From Thermoleophilia bacterium UBA6103 (GTDB lineage: Bacteria > Actinomycetota > Thermoleophilia > UBA2241), in the NCBI GenBank assembly GCA_002423545.1, contig DIWP01000056.1, positions 69,110 through 133,109 on the forward strand: a DNA stretch of 64,000 bases, in the 5' to 3' direction. The first letter of the stretch is position 1. The number at the start of each line of letters is the position of its first letter. Below the pieces are notes generated by a model. The model saw only the letters and a program-made list of their open reading frames with translations. It was not told the DNA's origin and ran no database searches. The position numbers and the translations under genes are program-made. Below are positions 1-55,041 of this stretch, piece by piece.

Positions 1-223
1 CGAGGTCCTCATCCAGGAGGCGATGGCCAGGCTGATGCGGGACCGCACCAGCTTCGTCATCGCCCATCGTCTCTCGACGATCCGCAACGCCGACACCATC
101 CTCGTCCTCGACCAGGGGCACGTGGTCGAGCAGGGGAGCCACGACGAGCTGCTGGCCGCCCGCGGCTTCTACCACGACATGTACGCCAGCCAGTTCGAAG
201 AGGCGCTCGAGGAGGTCTCGTGA
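1..223 (+). CDS. ABC transporter ATP-binding/permease protein, C-terminal fragment (5' end outside window)
   Basis: The translation ...[34 protein letters not shown]... matches the conserved C-terminus of MsbA-type ABC exporters (H-loop region). TGA stop at 221-223 overlaps the GTG start of the next gene. Confidence 0.7.
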
Positions 224-7362: not shown

Positions 7363-7486
7363 GGTGACGCTGTCGGGGCGCCGTCCGCATGAGGCCGGCC
7401 CGCTGCGGGAATGGTGTCGGGTATGCGCAGCGGCGCGGCCGGCAGCGGCCGGTCGGCTCCGGAGACCCGGAAGCGGAGGTAAGCGT

Positions 7487-10572: not shown

Positions 10573-10881
10573 GACCGTCGCCGTGACGCGGGTGCCTGCC
10601 GGTCGCCACCGACGCCCACTCTGCCGTTCTCCATCGCAGCCTCCTCACGGCAATGGTCGGCACGATCGACCGGCACGGCAAGCCCTCTGGAGACGAAGGC
10701 GCTCCAGATGCGTCGTCTTGTCAGGCAGCGCCGCCCTGTGCGGGCGCCCGACGCGCACGTGCCGGTCGGCGCACGAGCCGCGTCGTCTCGTCAGGCAGCG
10801 GCCGCGCGACCCACGCCGCCCGGGGCTCGCGGCGCCCGCCCGGGGCCACGCGAGCCGCCCGGGGCGACGGCATCCGGCCGG

Positions 10882-12138
10882 TCAGCCGTGCTGCGGCGAC
10901 TTCTGGTCGTCGTCGCGCGGACCGACCGCCGCGGCCAGCTCGCCCAAGGCGTCGTCGACGCCGGTCTGGTCGGTGTGACGCACCTCGACTGCGGCGTCGC
11001 GGAACACGTACGCCGGGCCCTTCTTGACCTCATGGGTCACCAGCAGGACGTCGACGGCGAAGCCGACGAGCCACTCCGCCGTGACGATGCCCTTCTGACG
11101 GTCGTCGTGCTGGTGCGGGTTGTCGCGGACAGCCTTGTCCACGATCGTCCCGTCTGCGGTCTTCAGCTTCACGAAAGCGAAGCGAGACGCCGAGCCGAAC
11201 TCGTCGCTGAGCCGCTCGGGGTCGGCGGCGAGCGGCAGACAGACGGTGAGCACGTCGGTGCGCTGCGGCTCCAGGTGCAGGGTCATGTGATCGACGCCCG
11301 GCAGCTCGTCGCGCACGCTTGCTTCCAGGCGGTCGGCGGCGGCGTGTGCCTTCTCCAGATCGTCGGTGCGCACCGCGACGATGGCTTCCACGAAGACGTA
11401 GCGGCCGGCGCTGCGGGCGGTGAGGTCGCGCACCTTGACGACCAGTGGGTCGGCCTCCAGGGTCTCCTCGATGAGGCGCAGGGTGCGCGAGTCGACCGAG
11501 GCGTCCAGCAGCACCTTCATGCCGTCGGTGAGCAGTCCCCAGCCGGAGTAGACGACGATGGCCAGGATGGGGAAGGCGGCCCAGCGGTCGATGTCGAAGC
11601 CGATGAAGGTGGAGGCGACGGCGACCAGGGCCAGCGTGCCGCTCATCACGTCGACCAGACGGTGCTTGCCGTCGGCCACCAGAGCCGGCGAGGACGTGCG
11701 CCGGCCGCGCGAGGTGGCGTACAGGCTGTAGGCGAGCGTGATGGCGATGGAGACCACGACACCGGTGATGACCCACCAGGTGATGACCGGCGCCTCCTCC
11801 TGCGGCGCCAGCGCCTGCGCAGCGATCTCGTAGGCGCCGACGAAGATGAGGATGGCGACGATGACCTGAAGGACGTTCTCGATCTTGTAGAGACCGAAGG
11901 GGAAGCGCGACGACTTGCGTGCCGAGAGGCGCAGTCCGGCCCAGAGCACGATGGCGCCGACGACGTCGACCGCCGAGTCGACCGCCGTCGCGGTCAGCAC
12001 CAGACTCTTGGAGAAGATGGCCAGGGAGCCCTTGATGGCGACCAGCAGAAGGCTGATCAGGATGCCGTAGACGGCGACACGCTGGACCTCGCGGTCGCCG
12101 GCCTGGGCTGGTGTGGGCGTCGGGTCGTTCATGGCCAT
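10882..12138 (-). CDS. cation diffusion facilitator (CDF) transporter fused to C-terminal NifX/NifB-like (dinitrogenase FeMo-cofactor-binding fold) domain
   Basis: 418 aa with six TM helices and a CDF-type cytoplasmic domain. The extra C-terminal ~100 aa (…FAFVKLKTADGTIVDKAVRDNPHQ…GIVTAEWLVGFAVDVLLVTHEVKKGP…) resembles the NifX/NafY family. Confidence 0.6.
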   Translation of the reverse strand: MAMNDPTPTPAQAGDREVQRVAVYGILISLLLVAIKGSLAIFSKSLVLTATAVDSAVDVVGAIVLWAGLRLSARKSSRFPFGLYKIENVLQVIVAILIFVGAYEIAAQALAPQEEAPVITWWVITGVVVSIAITLAYSLYATSRGRRTSSPALVADGKHRLVDVMSGTLALVAVASTFIGFDIDRWAAFPILAIVVYSGWGLLTDGMKVLLDASVDSRTLRLIEETLEADPLVVKVRDLTARSAGRYVFVEAIVAVRTDDLEKAHAAADRLEASVRDELPGVDHMTLHLEPQRTDVLTVCLPLAADPERLSDEFGSASRFAFVKLKTADGTIVDKAVRDNPHQHDDRQKGIVTAEWLVGFAVDVLLVTHEVKKGPAYVFRDAAVEVRHTDQTGVDDALGELAAAVGPRDDDQKSPQHG

Positions 12139-12266
12139 CTCGGCAGCATATGCTTCTTCTGCGCGCCGGCGTCTGTGCCTGCGGCCCCGACGGCCGCGGG
12201 ACGTCGGTCGCGAGCGAGGAGGTGTCCGGCGTGGATCCGGAACGGCCGTCGATCGAGCCGGTCACC

Positions 12267-12761
12267 ATGCGTCCGATCGGCATCATCCACAGTCCGCACC
12301 ACGATCCGGCGCAGACGCCGATCCAGCCGGTCTGCGCCCGTGGGGTGGCCGGCACGGTCGAGGTGTTCGCCGACTATGTCGAAGGTCTTGCCGATGTGGA
12401 CGGCTTCTCGCATCTGCACCTCATCTACTGGTTCCACCGCAGCGCCGCGGTACAGATGGGGTCGGACCCGCCGGCAGGGCCGTTCTCGCTGAAGGTCGTC
12501 CCGTATCTCCAGGACGTGCCGCGTGGCGTGTTCGCCACGCGGGCGCCACGGCGTCCCAACGCGATCGGCCTGAGCCTTGTCCGCCTCGTGGAGCGGCGTG
12601 GTGCCGAGTTGCACGTGGAAGACCTCGATGTGCTCGACGGCACGCCACTGCTGGACATCAAGCCGTACGTGGAGGGGTTCGATCTGCGCCTCGGCACGCG
12701 CGGGGGATGGACCGAAGCCGTCGGAGAGACCGAGTTCACCGAGCGGGGGCGGCGGCGCTGA
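12267..12761 (+). CDS. TsaA/TrmO-family SAM-dependent tRNA methyltransferase (YaeB-like)
   Basis: MRPIGIIHSPH…VFADYVEGLADVDGFSHLHLIYWFH…RRPNAIGLSLVRL… are hallmark TsaA-like motifs. The ORF track begins earlier (12111, GTG), but a conserved N-terminus starts at the internal ATG. Confidence 0.7.
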   Translation: MRPIGIIHSPHHDPAQTPIQPVCARGVAGTVEVFADYVEGLADVDGFSHLHLIYWFHRSAAVQMGSDPPAGPFSLKVVPYLQDVPRGVFATRAPRRPNAIGLSLVRLVERRGAELHVEDLDVLDGTPLLDIKPYVEGFDLRLGTRGGWTEAVGETEFTERGRRR

Positions 12762-13662
12762 AGTACAGACGGCCGTCGACCCGTCGCTTGTCCAGCAGTC
12801 CCTCGCCGTCGAGCTCCTCCACATATTTGAGGATCTCGTTGCGATGTGCGCCGAGACCCTCGACGATGTCCTCGAGTGAGCAGGGGCGGCGGGCCAGCAT
12901 GTCGAGCACCGCCGCCCGCGTGGCGCCGAACTCGGGCAGAGCGTGGACGCCGCGATAGTCGGCCACCACCTCGGCCGGTGGATCGAAGTACGTGGCGATC
13001 TCTTCCATGCGGGCGCGGTCGACGGCGACGGCGAACTCCTCGGCCGGCGGCCGCGTCACGGTGTTGAGCTGGACCCGGTCCGGCCGGATGTCGCGGGCGT
13101 GGTCGACGATGCGGCGTGCCTCGGCCGGGATGGCCGTATAGCCGCCGAGGATGAACGCTTCCAGCCAGATCGGCCCCTGGTACTCCCGCCGGAAGGCGAC
13201 CAGGCCGGCGAGCATCTGGGCGAAGGAGATGTACGGATGCGGCCGGTTGACCGCCTGGAACAGCGACTCGTCGCCGGCGTCCAGAGACGGCACCACAAGG
13301 TCGGCGGCGGCGATCTGTGCGCGCACCTCTGGGTCCCAGAGCAGCGAGCCGTTGGTGAGCACGGCGACCGGGACGTCGGTGAGGGCGTGGATGCGCTCGA
13401 TCAGCTCGTCGAGTCGCGAGTACAGGGTCGGCTCGCCGGAGCCGCTCAGCGTGATGTAGTCGGGTCGTGACGGGAGCGAGCCGCGCAGCTCCTCGATCAC
13501 GTCATCAAGCGGGACCCACTCGCGGCGCTCCACCGTCTTGTGGGTGGTGCGTCCGAGCTGGCAGTACACGCAATCGTAGGTACAGGTCTTGAAGGGGACG
13601 AGGTCGAGGCCCAGCGAGCGGCCGAGACGGCGCGAGGGGACCGGACCGAACACGTATGTCAT
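12736..13662 (-). CDS. radical SAM domain protein with C-terminal winged-helix-like region
   Basis: 308 aa with a CxxxCxxC cluster (KTCTYDCVYCQ) near the N-terminus, a Gly-rich SAM motif (LSGSGEPTL), and a TIM-barrel-like remainder. Start overlaps the upstream stop (ATGA). Confidence 0.7.
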   Translation of the reverse strand: MTYVFGPVPSRRLGRSLGLDLVPFKTCTYDCVYCQLGRTTHKTVERREWVPLDDVIEELRGSLPSRPDYITLSGSGEPTLYSRLDELIERIHALTDVPVAVLTNGSLLWDPEVRAQIAAADLVVPSLDAGDESLFQAVNRPHPYISFAQMLAGLVAFRREYQGPIWLEAFILGGYTAIPAEARRIVDHARDIRPDRVQLNTVTRPPAEEFAVAVDRARMEEIATYFDPPAEVVADYRGVHALPEFGATRAAVLDMLARRPCSLEDIVEGLGAHRNEILKYVEELDGEGLLDKRRVDGRLYFSAAAPAR

Positions 13663-14462
13663 CTCTCTTCGCCTCCCGGGTCATTGCTTGACTCGCCATC
13701 CGATCCGCCATCCGGCCCGTCTCCCGGCCCGTCGCACTCGTCGGAGCTATCGAAGGCCGGCTGCGGGTGCGACTGGGGCTGCGACTGGGGCTGCGGCTGC
13801 GGCTGCGACTGGGGCTCTGAACGCAGCTGCGACTGCGACGATCGCTGCGGTGGGGCCGGCGGGAGCGGCGGCCCCGGCCGCTGCATCTCCCGCACGAGGT
13901 CTGTCGGCAACGCCACGACCAGGCGGTCGGCGCCGAGTCCTCCGTACTCGCGGGCGTCGCCGCACCCGAAGGAGAAGGCGGGCAGACCGGCGCTGCCGGC
14001 GGCGGCGACACACGAGCAGACGGACATGAACGAGGACAGGCTCGTCTGCAGGGTACGGCCGTGCACGAGCTGCCAGCGCCGCAGCAGCTTCATGGCGGCG
14101 GCCGGCGTCAGGTAGGCGAGCAGGACGTCGGGGTCGTCGAGACGGCCGATGCGGATGAAGTGCAGCGGCCGTCGGAAGCAGGGCGTCTCCGCGACGATCC
14201 GGGTGGCGCGTTCGCGGGGCACGCCGGCGTGTTCGGCCATGCGCGCGACCAGGGTGTCATCGTCGCCGTCGCGGCCGAGGTTGCGGGGTGCGCCGACGCA
14301 GGTGAGGTCGGCGCAGTCGAGGACCACCTCTTCCCGGAACGACCGACCCACGGCGGCACAGAGCCGGACGAAGCCTCCCGGAGGCAGCGTGGCGGCCTCC
14401 TCGAAGCGCAGGGCCGTCCAGGGCTCGCCGGTGATGCCCTCCAGCAGCTCTATCTCGATCAC
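13659..14462 (-). CDS. hypothetical Cys-rich protein (possible DUF169-like) with Gln/Pro/Ser tandem-repeat C-terminus
   Basis: 267 aa with a GTG start overlapping the upstream stop. Several conserved-looking Cys (…CSCVAAAG…FGCGDAREYGG…). The C-terminal QSQPQPQPQSQPQS repeat is encoded by a DNA tandem repeat. Confidence 0.4.
   Translation of the reverse strand: MIEIELLEGITGEPWTALRFEEAATLPPGGFVRLCAAVGRSFREEVVLDCADLTCVGAPRNLGRDGDDDTLVARMAEHAGVPRERATRIVAETPCFRRPLHFIRIGRLDDPDVLLAYLTPAAAMKLLRRWQLVHGRTLQTSLSSFMSVCSCVAAAGSAGLPAFSFGCGDAREYGGLGADRLVVALPTDLVREMQRPGPPLPPAPPQRSSQSQLRSEPQSQPQPQPQSQPQSHPQPAFDSSDECDGPGDGPDGGSDGESSNDPGGEER
13690..13830. repeat. in-frame tandem repeat (CAGCCCCAGTCGCAGCCG-type hexamer/dodecamer units) encoding QSQPQP repeats
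   Basis: Visible as cagccccagtcgcagccgcagccgcagccccagtcgcagccccagtcgcac on the minus-strand coding frame. Confidence 0.6.
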
Positions 14463-15493
14463 GAGTCCGCTCTCGTCCTGTCTGCGTCATGCCGGCTGGG
14501 GGCGGCCGATCGGCCGTTGGCGACGGGGCCACCATCGGCGGCAGCGTGGCCGGCGGCGCCGGTGCAGCCGTCGGCACCGGCGTATCCGCCGGCGCCGGTG
14601 CAGCCGTCGGCACCGGCGTATCCGCCGGCGCCGGGGCGACCGTCGGCGCTCCGCAGCAGTGCCTGCGTGCCGCGGTCGAGCCCGGTGAGCGCGGCCACCA
14701 CCGGGCACTTGACGGTGAAGAGGAAGAAGATGTCGGCCGGCTCGTCGCTGAGCGACTCGTAGTTGCCCTGGCCCTTGGCGATGATGAGGTCGGCGGCGGC
14801 GAACCGGGCGCGGAAGTCCGGGGTGCAGTCCGACAGAAGGGTTCCCGGGGCGTCGGAGCCGTTGCTCACGACCTCACCGAACCGTCCCAGGCCGGCGACC
14901 TCGGCGTCGGCCAGCGTGGCGTCGTTGAGCACCGGCGCGCCGCGTACCGCGAACGTGACGCGTCCCGCCGGAAGCTGCTCGGCCAGCAAGGCGTCGAAGA
15001 CGATCTCGCCGGCATTGTCGGCGAGGTAGAGGATGCTGTCGGCGTCGGCCAGGGCGCGGCGGAACGCCTCGACATCACCGTGGAACGGCTGGTCGTGCGA
15101 TCCGTCGATGGCCTCTTCGATGCATTCCGTGCTGCGGGTGCCGGAGGCGCCGACGTCGATGGTGTTGCCGGCGATCGCCACGCGTATGGCGGCGGTCAAC
15201 GGATCGGGGGCGGTGCGCACGCGTTCGGCGAGCGACGGCAGCATGGCGAGCGCCGCCTCGTTGGAGTGTCGCTTGAGCTCTCCGAACGGGTCTTCGTCAC
15301 CGGCCAGCTCGCGGATGCGACGCTGCATGCGCTGCACCACCGGCAGCGGCGAGCCGCTGAGGTCGGCCGCGGCCGTGATCACCAGCGCCTCGCGCATGAT
15401 CCGTTCGCGCAGGTCGGCGTCCCCGTCGACGATCCGGGACGCCTCGAACGCCTGGCGGACAAGACAGGGCAAGCACTCCAACGTGGTCTTCAT
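14459..15493 (-). CDS. DUF89/ARMT1-family protein (damage-control phosphatase-like)
   Basis: The N-terminal MKTTLECLPCLVRQ (CxxC) and overall ~300 aa alpha/beta layout match the DUF89 family. The C-terminus carries a GAGGYAGADGCT repeat. First gene of a three-gene, minus-strand, translationally coupled operon. Confidence 0.55.
   Translation of the reverse strand: MKTTLECLPCLVRQAFEASRIVDGDADLRERIMREALVITAAADLSGSPLPVVQRMQRRIRELAGDEDPFGELKRHSNEAALAMLPSLAERVRTAPDPLTAAIRVAIAGNTIDVGASGTRSTECIEEAIDGSHDQPFHGDVEAFRRALADADSILYLADNAGEIVFDALLAEQLPAGRVTFAVRGAPVLNDATLADAEVAGLGRFGEVVSNGSDAPGTLLSDCTPDFRARFAAADLIIAKGQGNYESLSDEPADIFFLFTVKCPVVAALTGLDRGTQALLRSADGRPGAGGYAGADGCTGAGGYAGADGCTGAAGHAAADGGPVANGRSAAPSRHDADRTRADS
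14545..14650. repeat. ~36-nt tandem duplication inside the DUF89 gene 3' end
   Basis: cggcaccggcgtatccgccggcgccggtgcagccgt occurs twice consecutively and encodes GAGGYAGADGCTGAGGYAGADGCT. Confidence 0.6.
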
Positions 15494-15666
15494 CGCGGCG
15501 CCGCTGACCTCCTCGTTTTTTCTGGCGTATGCCCATAATACCGCGGACGGGGCCGCGTGTCTTCACCGCGTGCGGGTCGACGCATGTCATGCCGTCTCTG
15601 CGGGGTCGACGGCTGGAAGGACTCCGTCGACCGTCCGGCCGGGAATGGATGGATGGGGGCAGCCGA

Positions 15667-17136
15667 TCAGGAGGTCTCGAACGCCGCTCCGGCGTCGAGC
15701 TCAAAGCCCGCGGCGAAGAGCTGTTCGCAGGCGGCCACGACGTCGCGGTCGTAGCGCGTACCGGCGCCGTTCCGTACCTCGGCGAGCGCGATCTGGGTGC
15801 CGAAGGCCGGCCGATACGGCCGGTGACTGGCCATTGCCTCCACCACGTCGGCCACCGCCAGGATACGGGCCTCCGGCAGGATGTCGTCGCCCGTCAGGCC
15901 GCGCGGATAGCCGGAACCGTCGCGCCGCTCGTGATGCTGGTAGACGACCTCGGCGACCGGTCCGTCGAACGCGATCGGCTTGAGGATCTCGTAGCCGAGC
16001 ACCGGATGTCGGGTGATGAGGTTGCGCTCGATCGTGGTCAGCGCGCCGGGCTTGCTGAGGATCTCCGCCGGCACGCCGATCTTGCCGACATCGTGCACCT
16101 CGCCGGCCAAACGGATCGTCTCCACGGCGCTCTCTTCGAGGCCCATCGCGGCGGCGATGGCGACGGCAAGGCCGGTGACCCGACGCTCGTGGCCGCTGGT
16201 GTATGGATCGCGCAACTCGACCACGGCGCCCATGGCATGCACGGTGTCGTGCAGGGCGGTGCGGAGGCGCTCACTGCTCTCGGCCAGCGCCTCCTCGGCG
16301 GCCTTGCGCTCGCTGATGTCCAGCATGACGCCGATGATGCCGGCCGGCCGGCCATCGGGTCCGATGAAGGTGGCCTTGTTGAAGACGACGTCCCGCAGAG
16401 CCCCGTCTGCGGCCTGCACCTTCCACTCGTATGACTGTCGGCCTGGCTTTCGGAGCAGCGCGCGGTCCATGTCGGCGTACCTGGCGGTGACGTTCGCGGG
16501 TCCGGTGGACTCCACCTGGGTACCGACGATCTCGTCGCGGGGCCGGCCGAGCAGCTCCTCGAAGGCGCGGTTGCAGCCGAGATAGACCCCCTCGGCGTCC
16601 TTGTAGAAGACGGGACTGGGGATGGTGTCGAGCAGGGTGGCGAGAAAGCCCGCCTGCCGGGCCAGCTCGGCCGACTTCTCTTGCAGCGCCTCCTCGGCCC
16701 GTCGCTGGGCGCGTTCGCGCTCGGCGTCGGCCAGCGTCCGCTCCACCGCCAGCGGCAGTCGGGCGAGGCGGTCCTTGAGGACACAGTCGGCGGCGCCTTC
16801 CCTGACGATGGCGACCGCCTTCTCCTCACCGATGGTGCCGGAGACGCAGATCAGCGGGATGTGGGGGGCACGTTCCTTGACGATCTCCAGCGCCGCCGGT
16901 GCATCGAAGCCGGGCAGCTTGTAGTCGGCCAGGACGATGTCGTACGGGGCGGTGGTCAGAAGGCGCTCGAACTCCGCGCGGCCTGCAGTCACATCCATCT
17001 CGATCGTCAGGCCGGCAGCGCGCAGCAGCTCGCCGATCAGCTCGGCGTCGTCGGGCTCGTCCTCCAGGAGGAGGATGCGCAGCCGGCGCAGTATGTGAGT
17101 GCCGGCTTTCGGGTCGCGGTCCTGGGGCTCGTTCAC
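15667..17136 (-). CDS. response regulator receiver-PAS-HD-GYP domain protein (putative c-di-GMP phosphodiesterase)
   Basis: The receiver domain (LLLEDEPDDAELI…DIVLADYKLPGFDA), a PAS domain, and an HD-GYP domain (…HERRVTGLAVAIA…EVHDVGKIG…HHERRDGSGYPRGL) are all recognisable. Confidence 0.75.
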   Translation of the reverse strand: MNEPQDRDPKAGTHILRRLRILLLEDEPDDAELIGELLRAAGLTIEMDVTAGRAEFERLLTTAPYDIVLADYKLPGFDAPAALEIVKERAPHIPLICVSGTIGEEKAVAIVREGAADCVLKDRLARLPLAVERTLADAERERAQRRAEEALQEKSAELARQAGFLATLLDTIPSPVFYKDAEGVYLGCNRAFEELLGRPRDEIVGTQVESTGPANVTARYADMDRALLRKPGRQSYEWKVQAADGALRDVVFNKATFIGPDGRPAGIIGVMLDISERKAAEEALAESSERLRTALHDTVHAMGAVVELRDPYTSGHERRVTGLAVAIAAAMGLEESAVETIRLAGEVHDVGKIGVPAEILSKPGALTTIERNLITRHPVLGYEILKPIAFDGPVAEVVYQHHERRDGSGYPRGLTGDDILPEARILAVADVVEAMASHRPYRPAFGTQIALAEVRNGAGTRYDRDVVAACEQLFAAGFELDAGAAFETS

Positions 17137-17189
17137 GTCACCTCGTTCACGTCACCCTCGTGGTCTTGTCGCCGGGATCGAACCCGTCG

Positions 17190-17651
17190 TCACTCAGCGC
17201 CCTTTGTACCCGTATCGTCAGGTGGCAGCTCGTTGATGAGTGCCCAGAACACGCCGAGCTGACGCACGGCATGCATGAACTCCTCGAACTGGACCGGCTT
17301 GACCACGTAGGCGTTGGCGCCGAGCTGGTAGCTGGTGACGAGGTCCTGCTCCTGTCGCGACGAGGTCAGGATGACCACCGGCAGCGTCCGCAGCTCCGCG
17401 TCGGCGCGGATCTCGCGCAGCAGCTCGAGTCCGTCCATGCGCGGCATCTTGATGTCAAGGAGCAGGAGCGCCGGCCGACGCCCGCCGCGGGCCGCCCACG
17501 GTCCCTGGCGGCGCAGATACTCGAGCGCCTCCACGCCGTCGCCGACCACGTCCACCCGATTGGCCAGGCCCTCCTTCCTGAGCGCCTCCAGCGTCAGCTC
17601 CACGTCGTCGATGCTGTCCTCCGCCAGGAGGATGGGTCGCAGATCGTCCAC
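17190..17651 (-). CDS. single-domain CheY-like response regulator
   Basis: 153 aa with PILLAEDSIDDVELT…LLLLDIKMPRMDGLELLREIR…VVILTSS, a canonical receiver domain. Confidence 0.75.
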   Translation of the reverse strand: MDDLRPILLAEDSIDDVELTLEALRKEGLANRVDVVGDGVEALEYLRRQGPWAARGGRRPALLLLDIKMPRMDGLELLREIRADAELRTLPVVILTSSRQEQDLVTSYQLGANAYVVKPVQFEEFMHAVRQLGVFWALINELPPDDTGTKGAE

Positions 17652-17653
17652 GG

Positions 17654-20600
17654 TCAGCGTCCTTTCGGGCCGGGAAGCGCGAAGTAGAAGGTGGCGCCCT
17701 GTTCCACGGCGCCCTCAGCCCAGGTGCGCCCACCCATCCTGGCGATCACCCGTCGGACGGTGGCCAGGCCGATGCCGGCGCCGGCGAACTGATCGGGCGG
17801 ATGCAGCCGCTGGAACACGCCGAAGAGCTTGCCGGCGTAGCGCTGGTCGAAGCCGATGCCGTCATCGCGCACCCAGAAGACCAGCTCGTCGCCGTCCTCG
17901 TCGTAGCCGACCTCGATGCGAGCCGCGTCGTGAGGAGCCGAGTACTTGACCGCGTTGTCGAGCAGATTGATCCAGACCAGGCGCACCATGGCTTCATCGC
18001 CGCGTACGTCGGGCAGAGCGGCGATGCGCCACTCGATGGGCCGCTCCGCGGCGTCGGGCAGCACGGCCTCCCAAGCCTCGGCGACGACCCGGTCCATGTC
18101 CACGGTCGTCATCCTGATCTCGCTGCGGCCGGTCCGCGAGAACTCGAGCAGCTCGTCGATGAGGCGGCCCATCCGCTCGACGGCGGCTGTGATGCGGTCG
18201 ATGTAGTGCTGCAGGTCGCCCTGCGGCTCGTCGCCGGCACGCTCCTGCAGTAGCGTGGCGAAGCCGGCGATGTGCCGCAGCGGTGCCCGCAGATCGTGCG
18301 AGACGGTGTAGGTGAAGGCCTCGAGCTCCGTGTTCACCGCCTCCAGCTCCGCCGTGCGGTCCCTGACCCGCTGCTCCAGCTCGGCGTTGAGACGTGCCAC
18401 GGCCGCTTCCGCCCGCTTGCGCTCGGTGATGTCCTGGACCGTGGCGAACACTCTGACCGGCGTACCGTCGCTGTCGTGCTCGATGACACCCACGGTCCGA
18501 ACATGCAGCACCTCGCCGTCCCGACGGACGATCCGGTACTCGTTCGGCGTCAGCTTTGACGCACCTGACGCGAGGCACTCCTCCAGCCAGCGCGTCACAC
18601 GGTCGAGGTCGTCCGGGTGGTGCATCTCGGCGTTGACGCGCGAGTAGTCGATCGTCTCCTCCGGTCCATAGCCGAGCAGAGCGTACAGGCCGTCCGACCA
18701 GTCGACGGCCCCGGTCTGCACGCTCCAGGTGAAGTCGCCCATCCGGGCGATGCGCTGCGCCTGTCGCAGCTTCTGCTCGCTCTCGCTCACGGCCTCCTCG
18801 GCGGTCACCCGCTCGGTGATGTCGAGGACCGCCGTCATGAAGTAGAGCGGCTCACCATGCTCGTCGCGGCGCAGCGTCGTCGACACGTCGGCCCAGAGGA
18901 TCGATCCGTCCTTGCGCAGATATCGCTTGCTGAAGCGGGCCGAGTCGCTCTCGCCATTGAACAGCGGCGCGATGGCGGTCTCGTTGGCGGCGACATCGCC
19001 GGGATGGGTGATGTCCTGCCAGCGACGGCGCTGCAGCTCGTCGGTGGTGTAGCCCAGCATGTCCCGGAATGCCTGGTTGGTCTCCATGCGCCCGTCCGGG
19101 TAGGTCAGAGACTTGCCGACGATCGAACGGTCGAAGACGTACCGGAACTTGTCCTCGCTCTCCTGCAGCGCCTCCTCGATGCGCTGGCGCTCGGTGATGT
19201 CCTCGAAGATGGTCGCGAAGGTCCCGGGAAGCGGGGAGACCACGCTGATCTTGAAGTGGCGCTGCAGCGGTGGCCAGTACGTCTCGAAGCTGCGCGCGGG
19301 AGCGCCGCCCGCCACCGCCGCGTACTCGGCGAGGAACGGCGGCTCAGGACTACCGTATGCTCCGCGTGACGACCGTCCGCGGACCTGCTCGGGCGACCAT
19401 CCCGTGTGCGTCTCGAACGCCGGGTTGACGTCGAGGACGCGGTAGTCGACCGGCCGCCCGTCCTCGTAGACGACCTCGTGCAGGGCCACGCCCTCCGTCA
19501 TGCTCTCGAACAGCGAGCGGAACCTGGCCTCGCTGGCGCGCAATGCCTCCTCGGCCTGCTTGCGCTCGGTGATGTCGTCGAAGACCACGCAGAACCGCTC
19601 GCTCGTGTCCCACGGCCGGTAGACGGTGCAGTCGTAGAGCTTGCCGGTGGGCTGATGGAACATCTCGAAGCGCCGTGTCTCGCCGGAGACGGCCACGGCG
19701 CCGTAGCTCTCGATCCAGCTTGCCTCGGTCTCCGGCCATACCTCGTGGACCGTCTTGCCGCGCACCTCGTCCAGGGTCACGCCGGTGATCTGCTCGTAGG
19801 CCTCGTTGATGTACTCGAAGCGGTAGCTCACGAAGCCGCCGTGCTCGTCGAACACGGACTGGAAGACGACGAACGCGTTGCTCATGCTGCGCAGGAGGTC
19901 GGCACGTTCCCGGAACAGCGTCAGCCGCTCCTCCTCGGCGTGCCGGCGCTCGGTGATGTCTTCGGTGAAGCCGAGATAACGGGACGCGGAGAGCCTGACG
20001 GCCGAGATCGACCACCAGCGTCTCTCTCCGGCCTTCGTGATGAACGGTCCCTCCCCGTAGGCCTGCCCTGTCTCCAGCAGCCGCGCGAAGTGGTCGCGGC
20101 CGTACTCCATCTCGTTCGGCGGCAACATGTCGGGGATGACCATGCCGAGCAGCTCGGCTTCCGGGTACCCGGTCACCTTGCACGCCCGCGGGTTGGCCTG
20201 CAGGCAACGACCGGTCTCGTCGCTGATGAAGACACCGTACGGGGCGTTCTCGAAGTAGCTGCGCCACAGCTGCTCGCTGTCCCTCAGGGCTTCCTCGGCC
20301 TGCTTGCGCTCCGTGACGTCTTCGTAGATGGCGACGATCTCGCCGCTCGGCAGGCGGTAGACGAAGTTGTCGCGCCAGCCCGTCAGGCGCTCGTCGGCAT
20401 ACTGCGAGACCGGAAGCTCTTCCGGCGTGCCGGTCCGCTGGACGCGGCGGAAGACGTCCAGCAGCCCGAACTCCTCCACGCCGGGGAAGACTTCCGTCAC
20501 GCGCCGCCCGATGACGTCCGCCCGGTCGAGCCTCTCCATCGCCTCGGCGGCGGCGTTGAACTCGCGGAAGATGAAGTCCTGCCCATCTTCCGTGGCCTCG

Positions 20601-22513
20601 TAGACGGCGACGCCGGCGTTGATCCGCTCGACCAGCTCCCGGTAGCGCTCGCCGGTCTCGCGGAGCTTCTGCTGGGTCCGGGTCCTTTCTACGATCTCGC
20701 CGATGAGGCGCGCCGCGGAATGCAGGCGGACCTTGGCGAGCTGGATCATGTACTCGGGTCGGCTCTCGTAGGCGGCGGCCTCCTGCCGAAGGCGTTCGAG
20801 CGGTACGCGATAGAGCCGCGCCAGCTCCTGTAGCTTGTCGGAGCCCGAAGGCGGGTCGCCGTAGCCGACGTTGATGGCCCCCACGACCTCGTCGCCGGCG
20901 CGGATCGGCACGGCGTAGAGGTGAAGGCCGCCGTGGCACTCCATGTCGACCGGCTCGCCGGTCTCGATGGCCAGCCGTGAGCAGTCGGTCCAGCAGGACT
21001 CGTGACAGAGCCAGTCGCCGCTTGCGAGGGCCTGCGCGTCGTCGTCGGTGGCACAGAGTCGCCGCGCTGCGTCGTCGAGGCAGCGGCACCAGCCCGACGA
21101 GAAGATGCCGAGAGCGTAGTCGCCGTTCTTCTCGTAGACGGCCGACGAGGTGCCGAGCAAGTCGAGGAAGTCGCCGGCGATGATGCGCAGCGTGTCGGCT
21201 CCCACGGCGTCGAGGATGGTCCGGTCGGCGTTGAGCTCGGTCAGGTCCCCGTAGGACTGCGTCGCCGAGGCGGTCGGTGCAGCTTGGCCGTTGGAACGGC
21301 TCGACAGCATCCACTCGATGCGGCGCAAGTCGGCCTCGGCCTGCCGGCGCTCGGTGATGTCGTCGAATGTGGCGTACACGCTGGTCACGTCGCCTGAGCC
21401 GTCGGCAAGCTCCGGTACGGCGTTGATCTCTATCCAGCGATAGCCTCCGGACACCGGGTTGAACACGCCCATGACGACGCCCAGGACCGGCTCGCCGGTG
21501 TGCAGCGCCACCATGCCCGGATGATCGTCACCGGGGAAGTCGCTGCCGTCTTCGTGGATCGCCCGCCAGCGCGGGTCGGTGGAGGTGCGGCCCTGCATCT
21601 GGTCGAGCGTGAGGCCGAGGATGCGCTGAGCGGCGGGGTTGGCGTCGGTGATGCGGCCGTCGGTGGCCTGATAGACCACGCCCTGCGTCATCGTCTTGAA
21701 CAACCTGCGGTAGCGGGCCTCGCTCGAGCGGGCGCGCTCCTCGCGCTCGTCCAGCAGCTGCTGCTGCCGGGCGAGTCCGTCGAGCAGGCCGTCGACCTCG
21801 CGGGCGACTCTGTCGGGACCCAGGAACTCCAACGGCGGCAGGTAATGGTCGTTGCGCAGCACGCGGCCGCCGTGGATCACGAGCGGGTGCGTCAGGATGA
21901 TGTCGCGCATGGTCTCGGCCGGGAAGCGAGCGCGATGGTACTGGCAGATCGCTAGGCAGTCGTGCGCGGGCAGAAAGTCGTTGAGCCTGGCCTCGTATTC
22001 GACGAGGCGGTCGGCACCGGAGGCGTCGCCGACCGCCCAGGTCATCTCGCCGGTCACCCGCAGGGCGGCGAAGCCGTCGGCTCGGGCGGCGGCCGTCGAC
22101 TCGGCGAGGTAGGCGATCATGCGCTCGGGGTCAAAGGCGCCGTCGCGGAGGTACGTCTCGCGTTTCGTGAGTACGGCCAGCGCTCCCGACGCCTGAGCCG
22201 CGGCCGTGTCGACGCCGTCGTCCCGCAGCGCGGCCAGCACCGTCGCGGCGGTCGTCTCGTCGATCACGCACACGCAGCGGTCGCCGCGCTCCAGGCCCAG
22301 GCGGGCGAACGGTACGACGGCGGCACGCTGCTCATCCGGAGTCTCGTAGATGAGGCAGAGGTGCGCGTGCGGAAGCAACGCCTCCAGTGCGGAGAGCAGG
22401 GTGCCACCGCCGCTCAGCGCCGACTCGTCGAGCCCCCGGTCCGTGGGCGTGTGTCCGGGCATGTCGCCCGCCTTCCCCCGAGATCCGTGCCACGCCTCGG
22501 AGGGAGTGTACAC
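17654..22513 (-). CDS. giant hybrid sensor histidine kinase: N-terminal MEDS-like sensory domain, about eight PAS/PAC domains, HisKA and HATPase_c
   Basis: 1,619 aa. The N-terminal ~200 aa (HLCLIYETPDEQ…GFAALRVTGEMTW…CLAICQYHRARF…THPLVIHG) matches my recollection of the MEDS domain. Many PAS repeats follow, separated by coiled coils. The C-terminus carries H-box VSHDLRAPLRHI and an ATPase (…DDGIGF…GAGIGLATV). The true start may be the internal Met (MPGHTPTD, near 22465). Confidence 0.75.
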   Translation of the reverse strand: MYTPSEAWHGSRGKAGDMPGHTPTDRGLDESALSGGGTLLSALEALLPHAHLCLIYETPDEQRAAVVPFARLGLERGDRCVCVIDETTAATVLAALRDDGVDTAAAQASGALAVLTKRETYLRDGAFDPERMIAYLAESTAAARADGFAALRVTGEMTWAVGDASGADRLVEYEARLNDFLPAHDCLAICQYHRARFPAETMRDIILTHPLVIHGGRVLRNDHYLPPLEFLGPDRVAREVDGLLDGLARQQQLLDEREERARSSEARYRRLFKTMTQGVVYQATDGRITDANPAAQRILGLTLDQMQGRTSTDPRWRAIHEDGSDFPGDDHPGMVALHTGEPVLGVVMGVFNPVSGGYRWIEINAVPELADGSGDVTSVYATFDDITERRQAEADLRRIEWMLSSRSNGQAAPTASATQSYGDLTELNADRTILDAVGADTLRIIAGDFLDLLGTSSAVYEKNGDYALGIFSSGWCRCLDDAARRLCATDDDAQALASGDWLCHESCWTDCSRLAIETGEPVDMECHGGLHLYAVPIRAGDEVVGAINVGYGDPPSGSDKLQELARLYRVPLERLRQEAAAYESRPEYMIQLAKVRLHSAARLIGEIVERTRTQQKLRETGERYRELVERINAGVAVYEATEDGQDFIFREFNAAAEAMERLDRADVIGRRVTEVFPGVEEFGLLDVFRRVQRTGTPEELPVSQYADERLTGWRDNFVYRLPSGEIVAIYEDVTERKQAEEALRDSEQLWRSYFENAPYGVFISDETGRCLQANPRACKVTGYPEAELLGMVIPDMLPPNEMEYGRDHFARLLETGQAYGEGPFITKAGERRWWSISAVRLSASRYLGFTEDITERRHAEEERLTLFRERADLLRSMSNAFVVFQSVFDEHGGFVSYRFEYINEAYEQITGVTLDEVRGKTVHEVWPETEASWIESYGAVAVSGETRRFEMFHQPTGKLYDCTVYRPWDTSERFCVVFDDITERKQAEEALRASEARFRSLFESMTEGVALHEVVYEDGRPVDYRVLDVNPAFETHTGWSPEQVRGRSSRGAYGSPEPPFLAEYAAVAGGAPARSFETYWPPLQRHFKISVVSPLPGTFATIFEDITERQRIEEALQESEDKFRYVFDRSIVGKSLTYPDGRMETNQAFRDMLGYTTDELQRRRWQDITHPGDVAANETAIAPLFNGESDSARFSKRYLRKDGSILWADVSTTLRRDEHGEPLYFMTAVLDITERVTAEEAVSESEQKLRQAQRIARMGDFTWSVQTGAVDWSDGLYALLGYGPEETIDYSRVNAEMHHPDDLDRVTRWLEECLASGASKLTPNEYRIVRRDGEVLHVRTVGVIEHDSDGTPVRVFATVQDITERKRAEAAVARLNAELEQRVRDRTAELEAVNTELEAFTYTVSHDLRAPLRHIAGFATLLQERAGDEPQGDLQHYIDRITAAVERMGRLIDELLEFSRTGRSEIRMTTVDMDRVVAEAWEAVLPDAAERPIEWRIAALPDVRGDEAMVRLVWINLLDNAVKYSAPHDAARIEVGYDEDGDELVFWVRDDGIGFDQRYAGKLFGVFQRLHPPDQFAGAGIGLATVRRVIARMGGRTWAEGAVEQGATFYFALPGPKGR

Positions 22514-22634
22514 CCGGCTTGCTCAAGGACCCCGATGCCATCGGCCGATAGGTTTGAGCAGCATTGACAGGCGGAGGGCACTCGTCTAGCCTCCGCTGCG
22601 CATCAGTCAGCCGGATGACTGAGAGGAGGGGAGC
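22513..22634. promoter_or_regulatory. divergent intergenic region between the sensor-kinase operon and the mttB operon, with a sigma70-like promoter and two hairpins
   Basis: TTGACA (cattgacagg) is followed after about 17 nt by TAGCCT. Two inverted repeats are present: GCGGAGG-N12-CCTCCGC and TCAGTCA-N6-TGACTGA. The RBS GAGAGGAGGGG sits before the mttB ATG. Confidence 0.35.
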
Positions 22635-24104
22635 ATGAAGCGCAACGCACAGGCCGGCGCCGTACGCAACGCCGGACTTTCATTCGGCGTCTTCAGCGAG
22701 GCGGACATCGACGACATCCACCTGGCCACGCTCGAGGTGCTCGAGCGCACCGGGGTGTTCGTGGAACAGGAGGAGGCTTTCGACATCTTCGCCGACGGCG
22801 GCTGCCGCGTGGACAGGGAGGGGCGGGTGGTCCGCATCCCGGCGCACGTGGTGGAAGACGCTATCCGCAGCACGCCGCCGAAGGTGGTCCTCGCCAGCCG
22901 CGATCCGAAGAACGATGTGGTGCTGGAGGCCGGGCGGGTGGCCTTCACCAACTTCAGCGAGGGCATCAAGGTCATCGACCCCTACACCGGCGAGCTGCGG
23001 GACTCGGTGAAGGACGATGTGGCCGCCATCGCGCGCCTCAACGACTACCTGTCGGAGATGGACACCTTCGAGCTGGCGGTCGGCGCCAAGGACGTGCCGG
23101 AGGAGACCGCCTCGCTGCACAACGTGGAAGCGGCGCTGCTCAACACCACCAAGTGCGTCGCCGGCCAGGCGCTCTCCGAGTGGGAGAGCGAGGCGATGAT
23201 CGACATGGCGGCGGCGCTGGTCGGCGGCCGCGACGCCCTGCGCGAACGGCCGATCATCTACCTGGGCGTCTGCCCGGTGAGCCCGCTGCAGCTGCCGCGC
23301 GAGGTCACCGAGGTCGTCATCTCCTCGGCCCGGGCCGGCATCATGGACCTGGTTCTCAGCATGGCCATGGCCGGCGGCTCGTCGCCGGTGACCCTGGCGG
23401 GGACCATGGTCACCCACAACGCCGAGGTGCTGGCCGGCATCACGCTGGCGCAGCTCACCGAGCGTGGCGCCCCCTGCGTCTACGGGTCATCTACCACCGG
23501 GCTCGACCTGCGCTTTGCGGCCGCCTGCGTCGGCTCACCGGAGCTGGCCCTGATCAGCGCCGCCGTCGCCCAGATGGCCCAGCGCTACAGGATCCCGAGC
23601 TTCGTGGCGGGGTTGTAGGCGGACAGCAAGACGTGCGACGTCCAGACCGGTCACGAGAAGACCCTCACCGGACTCCTGGCGGCGTTGGCAGGCGCCAACC
23701 TGATCTACGGAGCCGGCATGATCGAATCGGGCGTCACCTTCGACTGCGGGCAGTTCGTCATCGACAACGAGCTGGCGCGGATGATCAAGCACACGGTGGC
23801 CGGGATTCCCGTCAACGACGACACGCTGGCGGTCGAGGACATCCACGCCGTGGGCCCCTTCAAGGACTTCCTCTCCCTGGACAGCACGCTGCGGCGGATG
23901 CGCGAGCAGAGCCAGCCGAAGCTGCTCGACCGGCGCGTGCGGGAGGACTGGGAGGCCGACGACGGACGCCAGATCCACGCGGTGGCGCTGGAGCAGGCCA
24001 GAGAGATCATGGCCGAGCACGTGCCGCTGCCGGTACCGGACGAGAGCGTCGAGCTCATGCGGCGGATCGTGGCCGACGCCGACAGGCAGTACGCCGGCGC
24101 CTGA
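22635..24104 (+). CDS. mttB: MttB-family trimethylamine (methylamine):corrinoid methyltransferase with a single in-frame TAG codon (candidate pyrrolysine codon) at 23616-23618
   Basis: ORF 22635..23618 and ORF 23685..24104 are in the same frame. The only interruption is a TAG after …IPSFVAGL. Conserved MttB sequence continues immediately afterwards (ADSKTCDVQTGHEKTLTGLLAALAGANLIYGAGMIESG…). This is the position where genuine MttBs carry Pyl. If read through, the protein is ~489 aa, typical for MttB. Confidence 0.6.
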
Positions 24105-24276
24105 AGCCGATCGCCCGTACGCCGGCCGGGTCTTCCGCGGGGGCTGCCACCGGCTGCTGTGGCGGGTCAGGCTCGTGACTCGTGCGGAGCGACCTCGTTG
24201 CCGAAGTAGAGAGCGATATCGTGTCGATCCGGCTTGGCCGTCGCCGGCGGCCGGCCGATGGGAGGAGACGACTCAT

Positions 24277-24640
24277 GATCGAGATCATCGACGCTGCCCC
24301 CGACAACGTGCTTGCGTTCAAGGCGGTCGGGGAAGTCGAGGCAGCCGACTACGATGCGGTGCTCAAGCCGGCTCTGGACCGCATGCTGCAGAGTGGCGAG
24401 AAGGTGCGCTGCGTGTACGTGCTGGGGCCTGAGTTCAAGGGATACTCCGCGGGCGCGGCCTGGGAAGACGCCGAGCTGGGCATGGCGCACGTGACCAAGT
24501 GGCATCGCTGCGCTGTCGTCACCGACGCCGACTGGCTGCGCCATCTCGTGAAGGGCTTCGGCTGGCTGATGGTCGGCCACATGAAGCTGTTCGCCGTCGC
24601 CGAGCTGCAGCAGGCGATGGAGTGGGCCGCCGCCGACTGA
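24277..24640 (+). CDS. STAS/SpoIIAA-like domain protein
   Basis: MIEIIDAAPDNVLAFKAVGEVEAADYDAVLKPALDRMLQSGEKVRCVYVLGPEF… is a ~120 aa STAS-type fold. An RBS GGGAGGAG precedes the ATG. The ORF track begins earlier at 24182. Confidence 0.5.
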
Positions 24641-24781
24641 CCGCGGCCGGCGGCCGGCCCGGCCGCCCGATCCTTCATGTGGACGGCACCGAAGCGTAAG
24701 CTTGGACAGGATGGTCGGAAGTCGTCACCGCACACACCGGTGCGACGCCATCGGGAGGCCACAGCAGGAGCGGAGGGTGTC

Positions 24782-25957
24782 ATGAGCGCACAGGACGCGG
24801 CGGGCGGAGAAGGGAGTACGGGCGCTCGGACCCCTCTCGAGAAGGCGGCGGACTCCCTGACGCCGGTCTCCGAGAGGGCGGCGTCTGACTATGCGGCGCA
24901 GAAGGACCGGTTGCGCGAGATGGTCGATCGCGCCATGGCCGGCAGAGCGGACATAGAGACGCTCCTCGGCGGCGGCTCGCTGCGCGTCATGTACGACAAC
25001 GACCGCAACCACGTCGCGTTCATGGCCACCGTCTTTGAGTCCAACGACTTCGGCCTGCTCGCCCGGACGCTGCCGTGGGTGTATGGCGCGTATCGCTCCC
25101 ACGGCTACAGCGACGACTACTTCCCGGCGGTGCTGAACGCGTGGATCGGCGCTGTGCGTCGGTACGTGCCGGCCGCGCATGCGGCAGAGATCGTGCCTGT
25201 CTATGAGTGGATGCTCGACCATCAGCCGGAGCTCATCGCGGCGGCCGATGTCGCCGCCGGCGCCGCCGCCGGTCGCGAGCCGGCCGAACAGGTCCGTGCC
25301 TTCCTCGGCGCTCTGCTGGCCGGTCGCGCCGCGGACTGTCAGGAGATCGCCGACGAGCTGACGCAGCGACCTGAGGATCTGGCGGGCTTCTATCTCGACG
25401 TCGTGCAGCCGGCCATGGAAGAGGTCGGCCGTCTCTGGGAGCGCGACGAGATCTCGGTGGCCGAGGAGCATCTGGCCAGCGCCATCGTCTCGCGGACGAT
25501 GGCGGTCCTCTACACGCGCCTGGTCCATCGCGACGTCACCAGGGGGTCGGCGGTCGTGACGGCGGCGACCAATGAGTTCCACGACATCGGCAGCCGCATG
25601 GCCGCCGATCTGCTCGAGGTGGACGGTTGGGATGTCACGTTCCTGGGCGCCAACACGCCCGACGACGAGCTGCTCAAGCTGATGCGCAAGCTGCATCCCG
25701 ACGTGTTGGGAGTCTCGGTCGCCATGCCGTTCAACCTCGATCATGCCAGGCGGACGGTGGCCGCCCTGCACGAGGACCCCGACCTCGGTGGGACGCGGGT
25801 GCTGGTCGGCGGACGGGCGTTCGCGCTGCGACCGGAGTCGGCTGAGTGGGTCGGCGCCGACGCGCTGGCCGTCGATGCCCGCGACGGGGCACGGATAGCC
25901 GCCGCCTGGTGGGGCACCGACCCTCGCGACGCCGCCGGCCACCTCCCGGGGGACTGA
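24782..25957 (+). CDS. cobalamin (B12)-binding domain protein with an uncharacterised ~170 aa N-terminal domain (corrinoid protein / B12-dependent sensor)
   Basis: A B12-binding cap helix bundle is followed by a Rossmann-like B12-binding domain carrying the DxHxxG motif (NEFHDIGSRMAADLLEVDGWDV). The N-terminal domain (…RVMYDNDRNHVAFMATVFESNDFGLLARTLPWVYGAYRSHGY…) is unassigned. Start chosen at MSAQDAAG. Confidence 0.65.
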   Translation: MSAQDAAGGEGSTGARTPLEKAADSLTPVSERAASDYAAQKDRLREMVDRAMAGRADIETLLGGGSLRVMYDNDRNHVAFMATVFESNDFGLLARTLPWVYGAYRSHGYSDDYFPAVLNAWIGAVRRYVPAAHAAEIVPVYEWMLDHQPELIAAADVAAGAAAGREPAEQVRAFLGALLAGRAADCQEIADELTQRPEDLAGFYLDVVQPAMEEVGRLWERDEISVAEEHLASAIVSRTMAVLYTRLVHRDVTRGSAVVTAATNEFHDIGSRMAADLLEVDGWDVTFLGANTPDDELLKLMRKLHPDVLGVSVAMPFNLDHARRTVAALHEDPDLGGTRVLVGGRAFALRPESAEWVGADALAVDARDGARIAAAWWGTDPRDAAGHLPGD

Positions 25958-25958
25958 G

Positions 25959-26933
25959 ATGCCGGCCGTCGATCTGGTCCTGCGCGAGTACCCCGACCTG
26001 CTGGCGGCGTACCTCGACGCCGGGGGTCAGGTCTGCGTCATCGTGCTCGATTTCGAGGGAGCGGTCGAGGGCTGCAACGCGGCGTTCCGCCGTCTGCTGT
26101 CGCCGGACGAAGACCCGCGTGGCCGGACGTTCCGTGACTTCCTCGGCCGTGGTGACTGGGAGCGATTGACCGCCTCCGGCTCGCCCGGCGGTGCCGATTC
26201 CATGGCCGGCCGCTTCCCCTTCCGCCGGGCGGTCGTGACCGTGCGCTCCGACCGCTTCAGCGGCCGGCCGCTTTCGCTGGTCGTCTTCGAAGCCGGTGAG
26301 CGCCGCATCGTGTTCGGCGAGCGGATCGAGGCGAGCGAGAGCGAGATCGTGGAGCGCATGTCGGCTCTGACCAGCGAGATGGCCGACCTGAACCGCGAGC
26401 TCAGCAAGACGAACGCGTCGCTGGAGCGGGCCAACGCCACCATCACCCGACTGATGAACTCCGATCCGCTCACCGGAATCGCCAATCGGCGGTTCTTCAG
26501 CGAGATGCTGGAGCGGGCGGTGAGCTTTGCGCGCCGCCATCGGCAGTCGCTGGCCTTGACCATCTGCGACATCGACCGCTTCAAGCAGATCAACGACTGC
26601 TGTGGCCACGCGGCCGGCGACAAGGTGCTCATCGGCTTCGCGCGCCTGCTACAGGACAGCTGCCGGGCAGAGGACGTGGCGGCGCGCTTCGGCGGCGACG
26701 AATTCTGTGTGCTGCTGCCGGCCACGGACATCGAGAGCGGGCGCAGCTTCGTCGAGCGATTGCGCGAGCGCTGGCGTGGGATCGCGTTCGACGAGCTTCC
26801 GGAGCCGGTCACGGCCAGCTTCGGGCTGGCGGTGCTGGCCGACGGTGACGGTGTGGAAGATCTCCTGCAGCGAGCCGACACCGCCCTGTATCAGGCCAAG
26901 CGCGGCGGTCGCGATGCCGTGGACTGCGCCTGA
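25959..26933 (+). CDS. diguanylate cyclase (GGDEF) with N-terminal sensory domain
   Basis: GGDEF signature RFGGDEF plus the surrounding conserved GGDEF-domain sequence (…LTGIANRRFF…DIDRFKQINDCCGHAAGD…). ATG at 25959 is 1 nt after the TGA of the B12-binding gene, so the two are translationally coupled. Confidence 0.75.
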   Translation: MPAVDLVLREYPDLLAAYLDAGGQVCVIVLDFEGAVEGCNAAFRRLLSPDEDPRGRTFRDFLGRGDWERLTASGSPGGADSMAGRFPFRRAVVTVRSDRFSGRPLSLVVFEAGERRIVFGERIEASESEIVERMSALTSEMADLNRELSKTNASLERANATITRLMNSDPLTGIANRRFFSEMLERAVSFARRHRQSLALTICDIDRFKQINDCCGHAAGDKVLIGFARLLQDSCRAEDVAARFGGDEFCVLLPATDIESGRSFVERLRERWRGIAFDELPEPVTASFGLAVLADGDGVEDLLQRADTALYQAKRGGRDAVDCA

Positions 26934-54863: not shown

Positions 54864-55041
54864 GTCGGCCGTCTCCCTCTCCGGTCGTGTCGCAGTCGCT
54901 CCAGGTATCGGCAGTGTGTGCAGGATGTGGAGCAGTTCGTGGTGCCGAGCGTCATTCCTCGCGGCGATACGGAGGGGGCGGGCGCGCGACGTAGTAAGCT
55001 GCGTCGGGACCGTCAGTCGGGCGGGGCGAGGGGGGGCAGAC

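Follow-up and report, generated by a model that had tools for sequence, protein, structure and literature searches.

An in-frame TAG codon at the pyrrolysine position of a Thermoleophilia mttB gene is very probably decoded as pyrrolysine

The closest characterised relative of the gene described here is the trimethylamine:corrinoid methyltransferase MttB of the archaeon Methanosarcina barkeri, which carries pyrrolysine (Pyl) at residue 334 and has been solved as PDB 7xcl, 7xcm and 7xcn. In bacteria, Pyl decoding is known from systems in which PylS is split into PylSc and PylSn, such as those of Desulfitobacterium hafniense, Acetohalobium arabaticum and Bilophila wadsworthia. The MttB superfamily also has non-Pyl members, of which the glycine betaine methyltransferase MtgB (PDB 2qne and 9yce) is one. 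For Actinobacteria, PylRS genes were reported in 'two Actinobacteria' among 81 bacterial genomes (Guo et al., 2022; PMC9630628), and metagenome-assembled genomes (MAGs) of Actinobacteriota were found to express Pyl-encoding mttB and mtbB genes, recognised by their amber truncation (Ellenbogen et al., 2023; PMC10805028). Here we describe an mttB gene with one in-frame TAG codon in a 64,000-nucleotide (nt) stretch of Thermoleophilia bacterium UBA6103 (contig DIWP01000056.1, positions 69,110 to 133,109; assembly GCA_002423545.1), which is referred to below as the window. From sequence comparison it is very likely that UAG codon 328 of this intact, 489-residue MttB is decoded as Pyl.

The open reading frames (ORFs) 22635..23618 and 23685..24104 of the window share one common frame. 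This frame (22635..24104, forward strand) holds 489 sense codons, its sole internal stop is the TAG at 23616-23618, and it terminates at the TGA at 24102-24104. The translation agrees with a preliminary description of this DNA, in which the two ORFs had been joined into an MttB of about 489 residues broken only by that TAG. The guanine plus cytosine (GC) content at codon positions 1, 2 and 3 is 0.69, 0.46 and 0.94 before the TAG and 0.70, 0.41 and 0.94 after it. Because these values are similar on either side, the coding signal of mttB is uninterrupted. Three ORFs of the window end in TAG, and mttB is the only one with coding-type composition 3' of it. The product matches Pfam MTTB over residues 7-480 (E=7e-91, 305 bits) and scores 687.4 bits on the NCBIfam equivalog model TIGR02369 over residues 16-483, where the cut-off is 525. 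Its best matches in the PDB are 7xcl, 7xcm and 7xcn (E~1e-115, residues 2-488). In the phmmer alignment the TAG lies opposite the X (Pyl) of 7xcl ('PSFVAGL*ADSK' vs 'PSYVAGSXSDAK'), and the archaeal enzyme thereby confirms the earlier placement of the TAG at the Pyl position. A paralog in the window had been described as having Ala at the aligned site, as in non-Pyl members, and the alignment agrees. Because of this Ala and a TIGR02369 score of 315 bits, below the cut-off, we assign the paralog to the non-Pyl superfamily.

Such an interrupted frame could stem from faulty assembly or mark a pseudogene that acquired its nonsense mutation only recently, and a fresh nonsense mutation would give just one in-frame stop, as is seen here. 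The comparative data effectively refute this explanation. The identical TAG recurs in an independent JGI assembly (L001), and the N-terminal product is identical on three contigs (from NCBI, JGI and ENA); since it is present in independent assemblies and contigs, the TAG is not a sequencing error. The sources in which the organism of the window occurs are JGI 3300001567, JGI 3300002498 ('TOLCLC', a toluene-degrading methanogenic culture) and the Logan runs SRR943311-14. At NCBI, proteins nearly identical to its own are labelled 'Actinobacteria/Actinomycetota bacterium'. The full-length mttB product was searched against 5.8 billion proteins and the best 120 matches were analysed. Among these, 83 were called as genes for exactly 327 residues, with the stop at the TAG codon; they are 67-82% identical to the window MttB and 80 of the 83 terminate in ...SFVAGL. 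As 83 of the 120 best homologs end there, the stop at the Pyl codon is conserved through a large and diverged clade. In the DNA that was fetched, the codon is TAG in all of the loci L001-L007 and in three mttB paralogs of the contig L103, and the frame runs on for 160-168 codons past the TAG to a TGA. L103 (JGI 3300037657, 265 kb) holds its three TAG-mttB paralogs within 8 kb, at 10001..17764. They have 61-69% mutual identity, and each has its TAG at codon 328 of 489. A TAG that is invariant across genes only 61-73% identical argues against a fresh mutation. Three non-Pyl MTTB genes, an ABC transporter and FAD/FeS oxidoreductases are found near the L103 paralogs.

The part of mttB downstream of the TAG is under purifying selection. 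In a codon alignment of four genes (those of the window, L002, L003 and L006), the ratio of nonsynonymous to synonymous substitution rates (dN/dS) lies between 0.27 and 0.45 for the part before the TAG and between 0.34 and 0.51 for the part after it, which is well below 1 and likewise argues against a pseudogene. Amino acid identity is 66-81% upstream and 64-78% downstream, and the alignment contains zero frameshifts and zero further stops. The preliminary description had seen none of the decay of a pseudogene, and this holds up, given the selection on the downstream part and the conservation of the TAG across the clade and among paralogs.

The codons right after the TAG vary synonymously (Ser AGC<->TCG, Ala GCG/GCA/GCC) and the peptide that they encode, ADSK..Q.GHEKTLT, is conserved, so the codons directly 3' of the TAG are translated. 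This bears on a split gene, in which the TAG would be a true stop and polypeptides of 327 and about 139 residues (the latter from TTG 23685) would assemble, or the N-terminal part alone would be functional. Gene callers do annotate two ORFs, and TAG serves as a stop elsewhere in the window. However, few parts of the protein are as well conserved as the 22 codons that separate the TAG from the first possible start, and these codons vary synonymously. Since that first possible start lies 23 codons 3' of the TAG in the window and the intervening codons are translated, re-initiation is ruled out as the basis of a split gene. Moreover, the sequence after the TAG has no conserved start codon or ribosome-binding site, downstream starts are called at different points in different loci (giving fragments of 128 to 160 residues), and the residue that would be missing is Pyl, which is catalytic in the solved enzyme. 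We consider the split gene very improbable.

The machinery for Pyl decoding is complete in the same high-GC actinobacterial clade of Thermoleophilia type. A search with D. hafniense PylSc (sequence verified against PDB 3dsq) returned Firmicutes only. A 50%-representative library led to a high-GC PylSc (P0281), and a search with P0281 retrieved at least 120 PylSc clusters (90% identity) of 284-286 amino acids (aa) and 63-78% identity. The named clusters are called 'pyrrolysine--tRNA(Pyl) ligase large subunit [Thermoleophilia bacterium]' or '[Actinobacteria bacterium]'. The order of the clade cassette is Amidase_3, PylSc, PylSn, a Germane-domain protein, tRNA-Pyl, pylD, pylC and pylB, and it is set among the housekeeping genes gltX, cysS, TldD/PmbA, leuBCD and gatB. 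A tRNA-Pyl with a CUA anticodon was found by ARAGORN in L008, L009, L015, L019, L021, L022 and L024. Scores of the five Pyl proteins on their NCBIfam models are listed in Table 1.

The clade tRNA-Pyl is 73 nt long (GGGGGGTCGATCGRAAGGATCAGCGYGGGCTCTAAACCCACGCAGGCGGGTGTGACTCCCGCACTCCCCGCCA), and 71 of the 73 nt are invariant across lineages whose PylSc share only 69% identity. A variable position is U26/C26, which stands opposite A40 of the anticodon stem; the C variant gives a C-A mismatch. A 54-nt probe of this tRNA has matches in 55 contigs of JGI metagenomes and in 20 genomes that represent GTDB species, and at nearly all of the 75 probe-positive loci pylB, pylC, pylD, PylSn and PylSc genes adjoin the tRNA-Pyl. 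By their titles, the 20 GTDB genomes comprise 16 Thermoleophilia, 2 Actinomycetes, 1 Actinomycetota and 1 Zixibacteria. A 165-kb contig titled 'candidate division Zixibacteria' (L089; CAVTJJ010000002.1) carries the exact actinobacterial-type tRNA-Pyl with pylB, pylC, pylD and both PylS parts, and its Pyl proteins are 62-90% identical to those of L008. This contig is probably mis-binned; otherwise lateral transfer would account for it.

The lineage also has a gene of a second Pyl-dependent enzyme family. In L002, L003, L004, L006 and L014, mtbB (Dimeth_Pyl), the gene for a dimethylamine methyltransferase, likewise contains a single in-frame TAG, which follows codon 344 ('DGL-O-VG.GDP'). In the related contigs L002, L003, L004 and L006 the TAG-mtbB lies 1-2 kb from the TAG-mttB, and in L014, a contig of 1.14 Mb, PylSc directly adjoins the TAG-mtbB. 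More than one Pyl-type gene with a conserved in-frame TAG is therefore present at the level of the clade, and the window holds mttB alone. Beside PylSc and just upstream of the TAG-mtbB, L014 also encodes an 89-aa MTTB fragment (12561..12830, reverse strand) that matches the C-terminus of the window MttB (49% identity) and looks like an mttB remnant. Two further candidates for Pyl genes, AOR in L083 and CitMHS in L002, were rejected, the in-frame extension past the TAG being merely the next gene.

Several results weigh against Pyl decoding by the genome of the window. No tRNA-Pyl was found in the 64 kb, where ARAGORN reported only a tRNA-Val and Rfam was also scanned. pylS, pylB, pylC and pylD were found neither by Pfam among the approximately 45 ORFs of the window nor by tblastn with the PylSc, PylSn, PylB, PylC and PylD of the clade. 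The exact 54-nt pylT probe has no match in the JGI samples 3300001567 and 3300002498 of the window organism, and none of the PylSc found could be tied to its own genome. Canonical MttC, an MT2 methyltransferase and a permease were not found beside mttB. Finally, TAG truly ends two genes of the window, an M20 peptidase (54772..56244) and a MASE3-GGDEF protein (60968..62521), with non-coding sequence behind, and it ends about 15-20% of ORFs in the clade loci. We infer Pyl decoding by this genome from its lineage, and the argument is strong but not direct.

The main rival follows from the fact that no pyl genes are linked to this genome. The pyl cassette would have been lost or never present, and the TAG would be read through with low efficiency, by a near-cognate tRNA or some other suppressor that inserts a canonical residue (Gln, Tyr, Trp or Lys, or Leu or Trp as in uninterrupted relatives). 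In its favour, there are close uninterrupted homologs with Leu, Trp, Val or Ala in place of Pyl that pass the MttB equivalog cut-off. However, 83 homolog clusters and three paralogs retain the TAG, where a sense codon would serve much more simply if Pyl were dispensable. The pyl cassette is widespread in the clade and embedded in core-genome synteny, and the mttB of the window has not decayed. Canonical readthrough is thus improbable, although it ranks first among the alternatives. As to the uninterrupted relatives themselves, 35 of the 120 best homologs belong here. They are 482-504 aa long (one is a 433-aa fragment), have 49-61% identity to the window MttB, and carry Leu, Trp, Val, Ala, Ser or Thr at the Pyl column ('VAGG-L/W-GDSK'). 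P0002 and P0004 score 650-687 bits on the equivalog model with its cut-off of 525. These homologs (P0002, P0004-P0014 and others) are much nearer to Pyl-MttB than characterised non-Pyl members are.

Under the decoding of UAG 328 as Pyl, which we prefer, the frame would yield a single full-length, 489-residue trimethylamine:corrinoid methyltransferase. The UAG would be translated by an amber-suppressing tRNA-Pyl that is charged by split PylSc/PylSn, and Pyl would be made by PylB, PylC and PylD, all of them presumably encoded elsewhere in the genome. The Pyl side chain would bind and activate the substrate, probably trimethylamine, and the methyl group would be passed to a corrinoid protein. The same core reading, amber recoding to Pyl in a Pyl-type mttB, had been put forward in the preliminary description. 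It is now supported by the position of the TAG, its conservation, the protein family and the machinery of the clade.

Because TAG is still a stop in this lineage, Pyl insertion must compete with termination, presumably by release factor 1 (RF1). Among 42 confidently called genes of the window, 39 stops are TGA, none is TAA and three are TAG, one of these being the internal TAG of mttB. It had been noted before that TAG is rare here (3 of about 55 stops) yet still terminates genes, and the present count, with its two genuine terminators, is in line with that. Two other genes of the window relate to translation. prfB (50358..51546, forward strand) encodes release factor 2, with PCRF and RF-1 domains and an SPF motif, by a classical programmed +1 frameshift. 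Its frame 0 begins at ATG 50358 and extends to 'TAT CTT TGA C' (CTT 50451-53, TGA 50454-56), from where the +1 frame continues to 51546; this is a second recoding event in the window. The ORF 7389..8663 (forward strand) encodes a bacterial aeRF1-like domain (Pfam baeRF_family3/7/6). Among NCBIfam models the protein is most similar to the 'AOC03_06830 family ribosome hibernation factor', but its 137 bits fall short of the cut-off of 330.

It had also been proposed that a PYLIS-like hairpin be looked for 3' of the TAG. The Rfam model RF02510 (PYLIS_3) does match 23616..23715 with 77.7 bits (gathering score 38). The model has only 8 base pairs, of which 4 are non-canonical in the window match. 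The 100 nt 3' of the TAG fold no better than shuffled sequences in four lineages (z -0.6 to +0.4). Across seven genes, the Rfam consensus pairs are 62.5% paired and show no covariation. Two local hairpins 3' of the TAG are invariant, with two variable columns that break pairs. Neither fold stability nor covariation supports a hairpin, and a PYLIS element at this site is not supported, the score of the match being explained by conservation of the coding sequence.

A modest signal is present at the nucleotide level. Synonymous-site identity peaks, gene-wide, in the 30 codons after the TAG (0.82-0.85 vs a mean of 0.64). After amino-acid-specific correction for codon bias the excess is +0.119, with an a-priori p~0.002 and a gene-wide max-window p~0.06 for seven non-independent sequences. 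The segment 23619..23708 contains an invariant, rare A-ending GCA and, in 5 of 7 genes, a T-ending GGT, despite a GC content at third codon positions of 0.94. Since synonymous conservation is maximal in codons +1 to +30, rare codons included, we keep open the following combined reading, which we think unlikely. The roughly 90 nt after the UAG would act as a PYLIS-like nucleotide signal that favours Pyl over RF1 in a lineage in which TAG is still a common stop, and the clade itself would be a large actinobacterial lineage in which Pyl use is inherited vertically and tRNA-Pyl hardly varies.

The mttB of the window sits among signalling genes (15667..26933), outside any catabolic operon (Table 1). 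A sensor histidine kinase gene is divergent from it, followed by two response-regulator genes, and 3' of mttB lie in order genes for a SpoIIAA-like/STAS protein, a B12-binding protein and a GGDEF protein. The B12-binding protein scores 49.8 bits on the NCBIfam model pyl_corrinoid (cut-off 215) and its best match is CarH-like; its N-terminal extension of about 200-210 aa matches no Pfam family at E<=1. It is the only corrinoid-binding candidate near mttB and is not a canonical MttC. In relatives, unlike in the window, mttB belongs to catabolic operons that also contain genes for MtbB, permeases, non-Pyl MttB paralogs and a corrinoid protein of about 210 aa, the last of these adjoining mttB or pylS.

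Table 1. Features of the window and of related clade loci. Positions are those of the window unless a locus is named.
Feature	Position	Strand	Basis
mttB, Pyl-type trimethylamine:corrinoid methyltransferase	22635..24104	+	Translation; Pfam MTTB; NCBIfam TIGR02369; PDB 7xcm/7xcl
In-frame TAG, codon 328	23616..23618	+	Opposite Pyl (X) of 7xcl; same codon in all seven homologous genes
Codons +1 to +30 after the TAG, conserved active-site segment ADSK..Q.GHEKTLT..ALAGAN.IY	23619..23708	+	Synonymous-conservation excess
Shine-Dalgarno-like AGGAGG	22624..22629	+	5 nt 5' of ATG 22635; read from the sequence
Non-Pyl MttB-superfamily paralog, Ala at Pyl column	220..1692	+	Pfam MTTB; TIGR02369 315 bits (cut-off 525); alignment
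MEDS-PAS sensor histidine kinase, divergent from mttB	17654..22513	-	Pfam MEDS, PAS, HisKA, HATPase_c
Two response-regulator genes (one PAS-HD-GYP), after the histidine kinase	17190..17651, 15667..17136	-	Pfam Response_reg/HD-GYP
B12-binding protein, 391-426 aa, motif E-F-H-D-I-G	24677..25957	+	Pfam B12-binding_2 + B12-binding
Clade tRNA-Pyl, aligned copies	L008 15237..15309, L019 12227..12299	-	
Clade PylSc			312 bits (NCBIfam cut-off 178)
Clade PylSn			123 bits (NCBIfam cut-off 51)
Clade PylD			208 bits (NCBIfam cut-off 150)
Clade PylC			338 bits (NCBIfam cut-off 248)
Clade PylB			444 bits (NCBIfam cut-off 348)

The gene is due to be annotated as a single Pyl-containing MttB instead of two fragments or a pseudogene. 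This annotation would assign anaerobic trimethylamine demethylation to an actinobacterium that lives in a methanogenic community degrading hydrocarbons and that would be a competitor of methylotrophic methanogens there for methylamines. The high-GC set of PylSc, PylSn and tRNA-Pyl may also interest those who make tools for genetic code expansion.

The comparison with M. barkeri MttB is the closest. The two proteins can be aligned over their full length, the TAG falls at the Pyl position of the archaeal enzyme, and both pass the same equivalog model. The motifs PS(F/Y)VAG-x-O-(A/S)D(S/A)K, GHEKT and LAGAN.IYGAGM are common to both. In contrast to M. barkeri, the host of the window gene is a bacterium with about 70% GC, and about half of the residues differ. 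The window mttB has no adjacent mttC or mttP, and the archaeal PYLIS_3 structure is not maintained. MtgB and the other non-Pyl members belong to the same fold family. The paralog 220..1692 falls among them, below the equivalog cut-off, whereas the mttB described here has a TAG at the Pyl column and exceeds that cut-off.

The clade cassette is of the bacterial split PylSc/PylSn type. Its PylSc has about 285 aa and is approximately 52% identical to that of D. hafniense, and its PylSn has about 108 aa. As in the known split-PylS bacteria, pylB, pylC, pylD and a CUA tRNA-Pyl are present and TAG remains a stop elsewhere. Unlike those bacteria, the clade consists of high-GC Actinomycetota of Thermoleophilia type, and its pyl genes do not form a compact, methyltransferase-linked operon but are scattered through some 6-9 kb that also contain housekeeping genes (Amidase_3, TldD/PmbA, gltX, cysS and leuBCD).

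Pyl-encoding Actinobacteria are already on record. The reading of a Pyl-type mttB in a high-GC actinobacterium by the preliminary description is supported, but it overstated how unusual this is, in view of the two published reports (PMC9630628, PMC10805028) and of NCBI annotation, which already names PylS in Thermoleophilia MAGs. New here are the scale, the conserved location of the cassette in the core genome and the near-invariant tRNA-Pyl. At least 20 GTDB species with the clade tRNA-Pyl, at least 120 PylSc clusters and the 83 of 120 best MttB homologs that end at the Pyl codon point to a far wider use of Pyl in Thermoleophilia-type Actinomycetota than was apparent from the 'two Actinobacteria' surveyed in 2022. 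The phenomenon is the same as that of Guo et al. (2022) and Ellenbogen et al. (2023), who reported PylRS in the phylum and amber-truncated mttB and mtbB in MAGs as survey-level statements. In comparison, the mttB of the window comes from a toluene-degrading methanogenic enrichment and is found in a neighbourhood of signalling genes.

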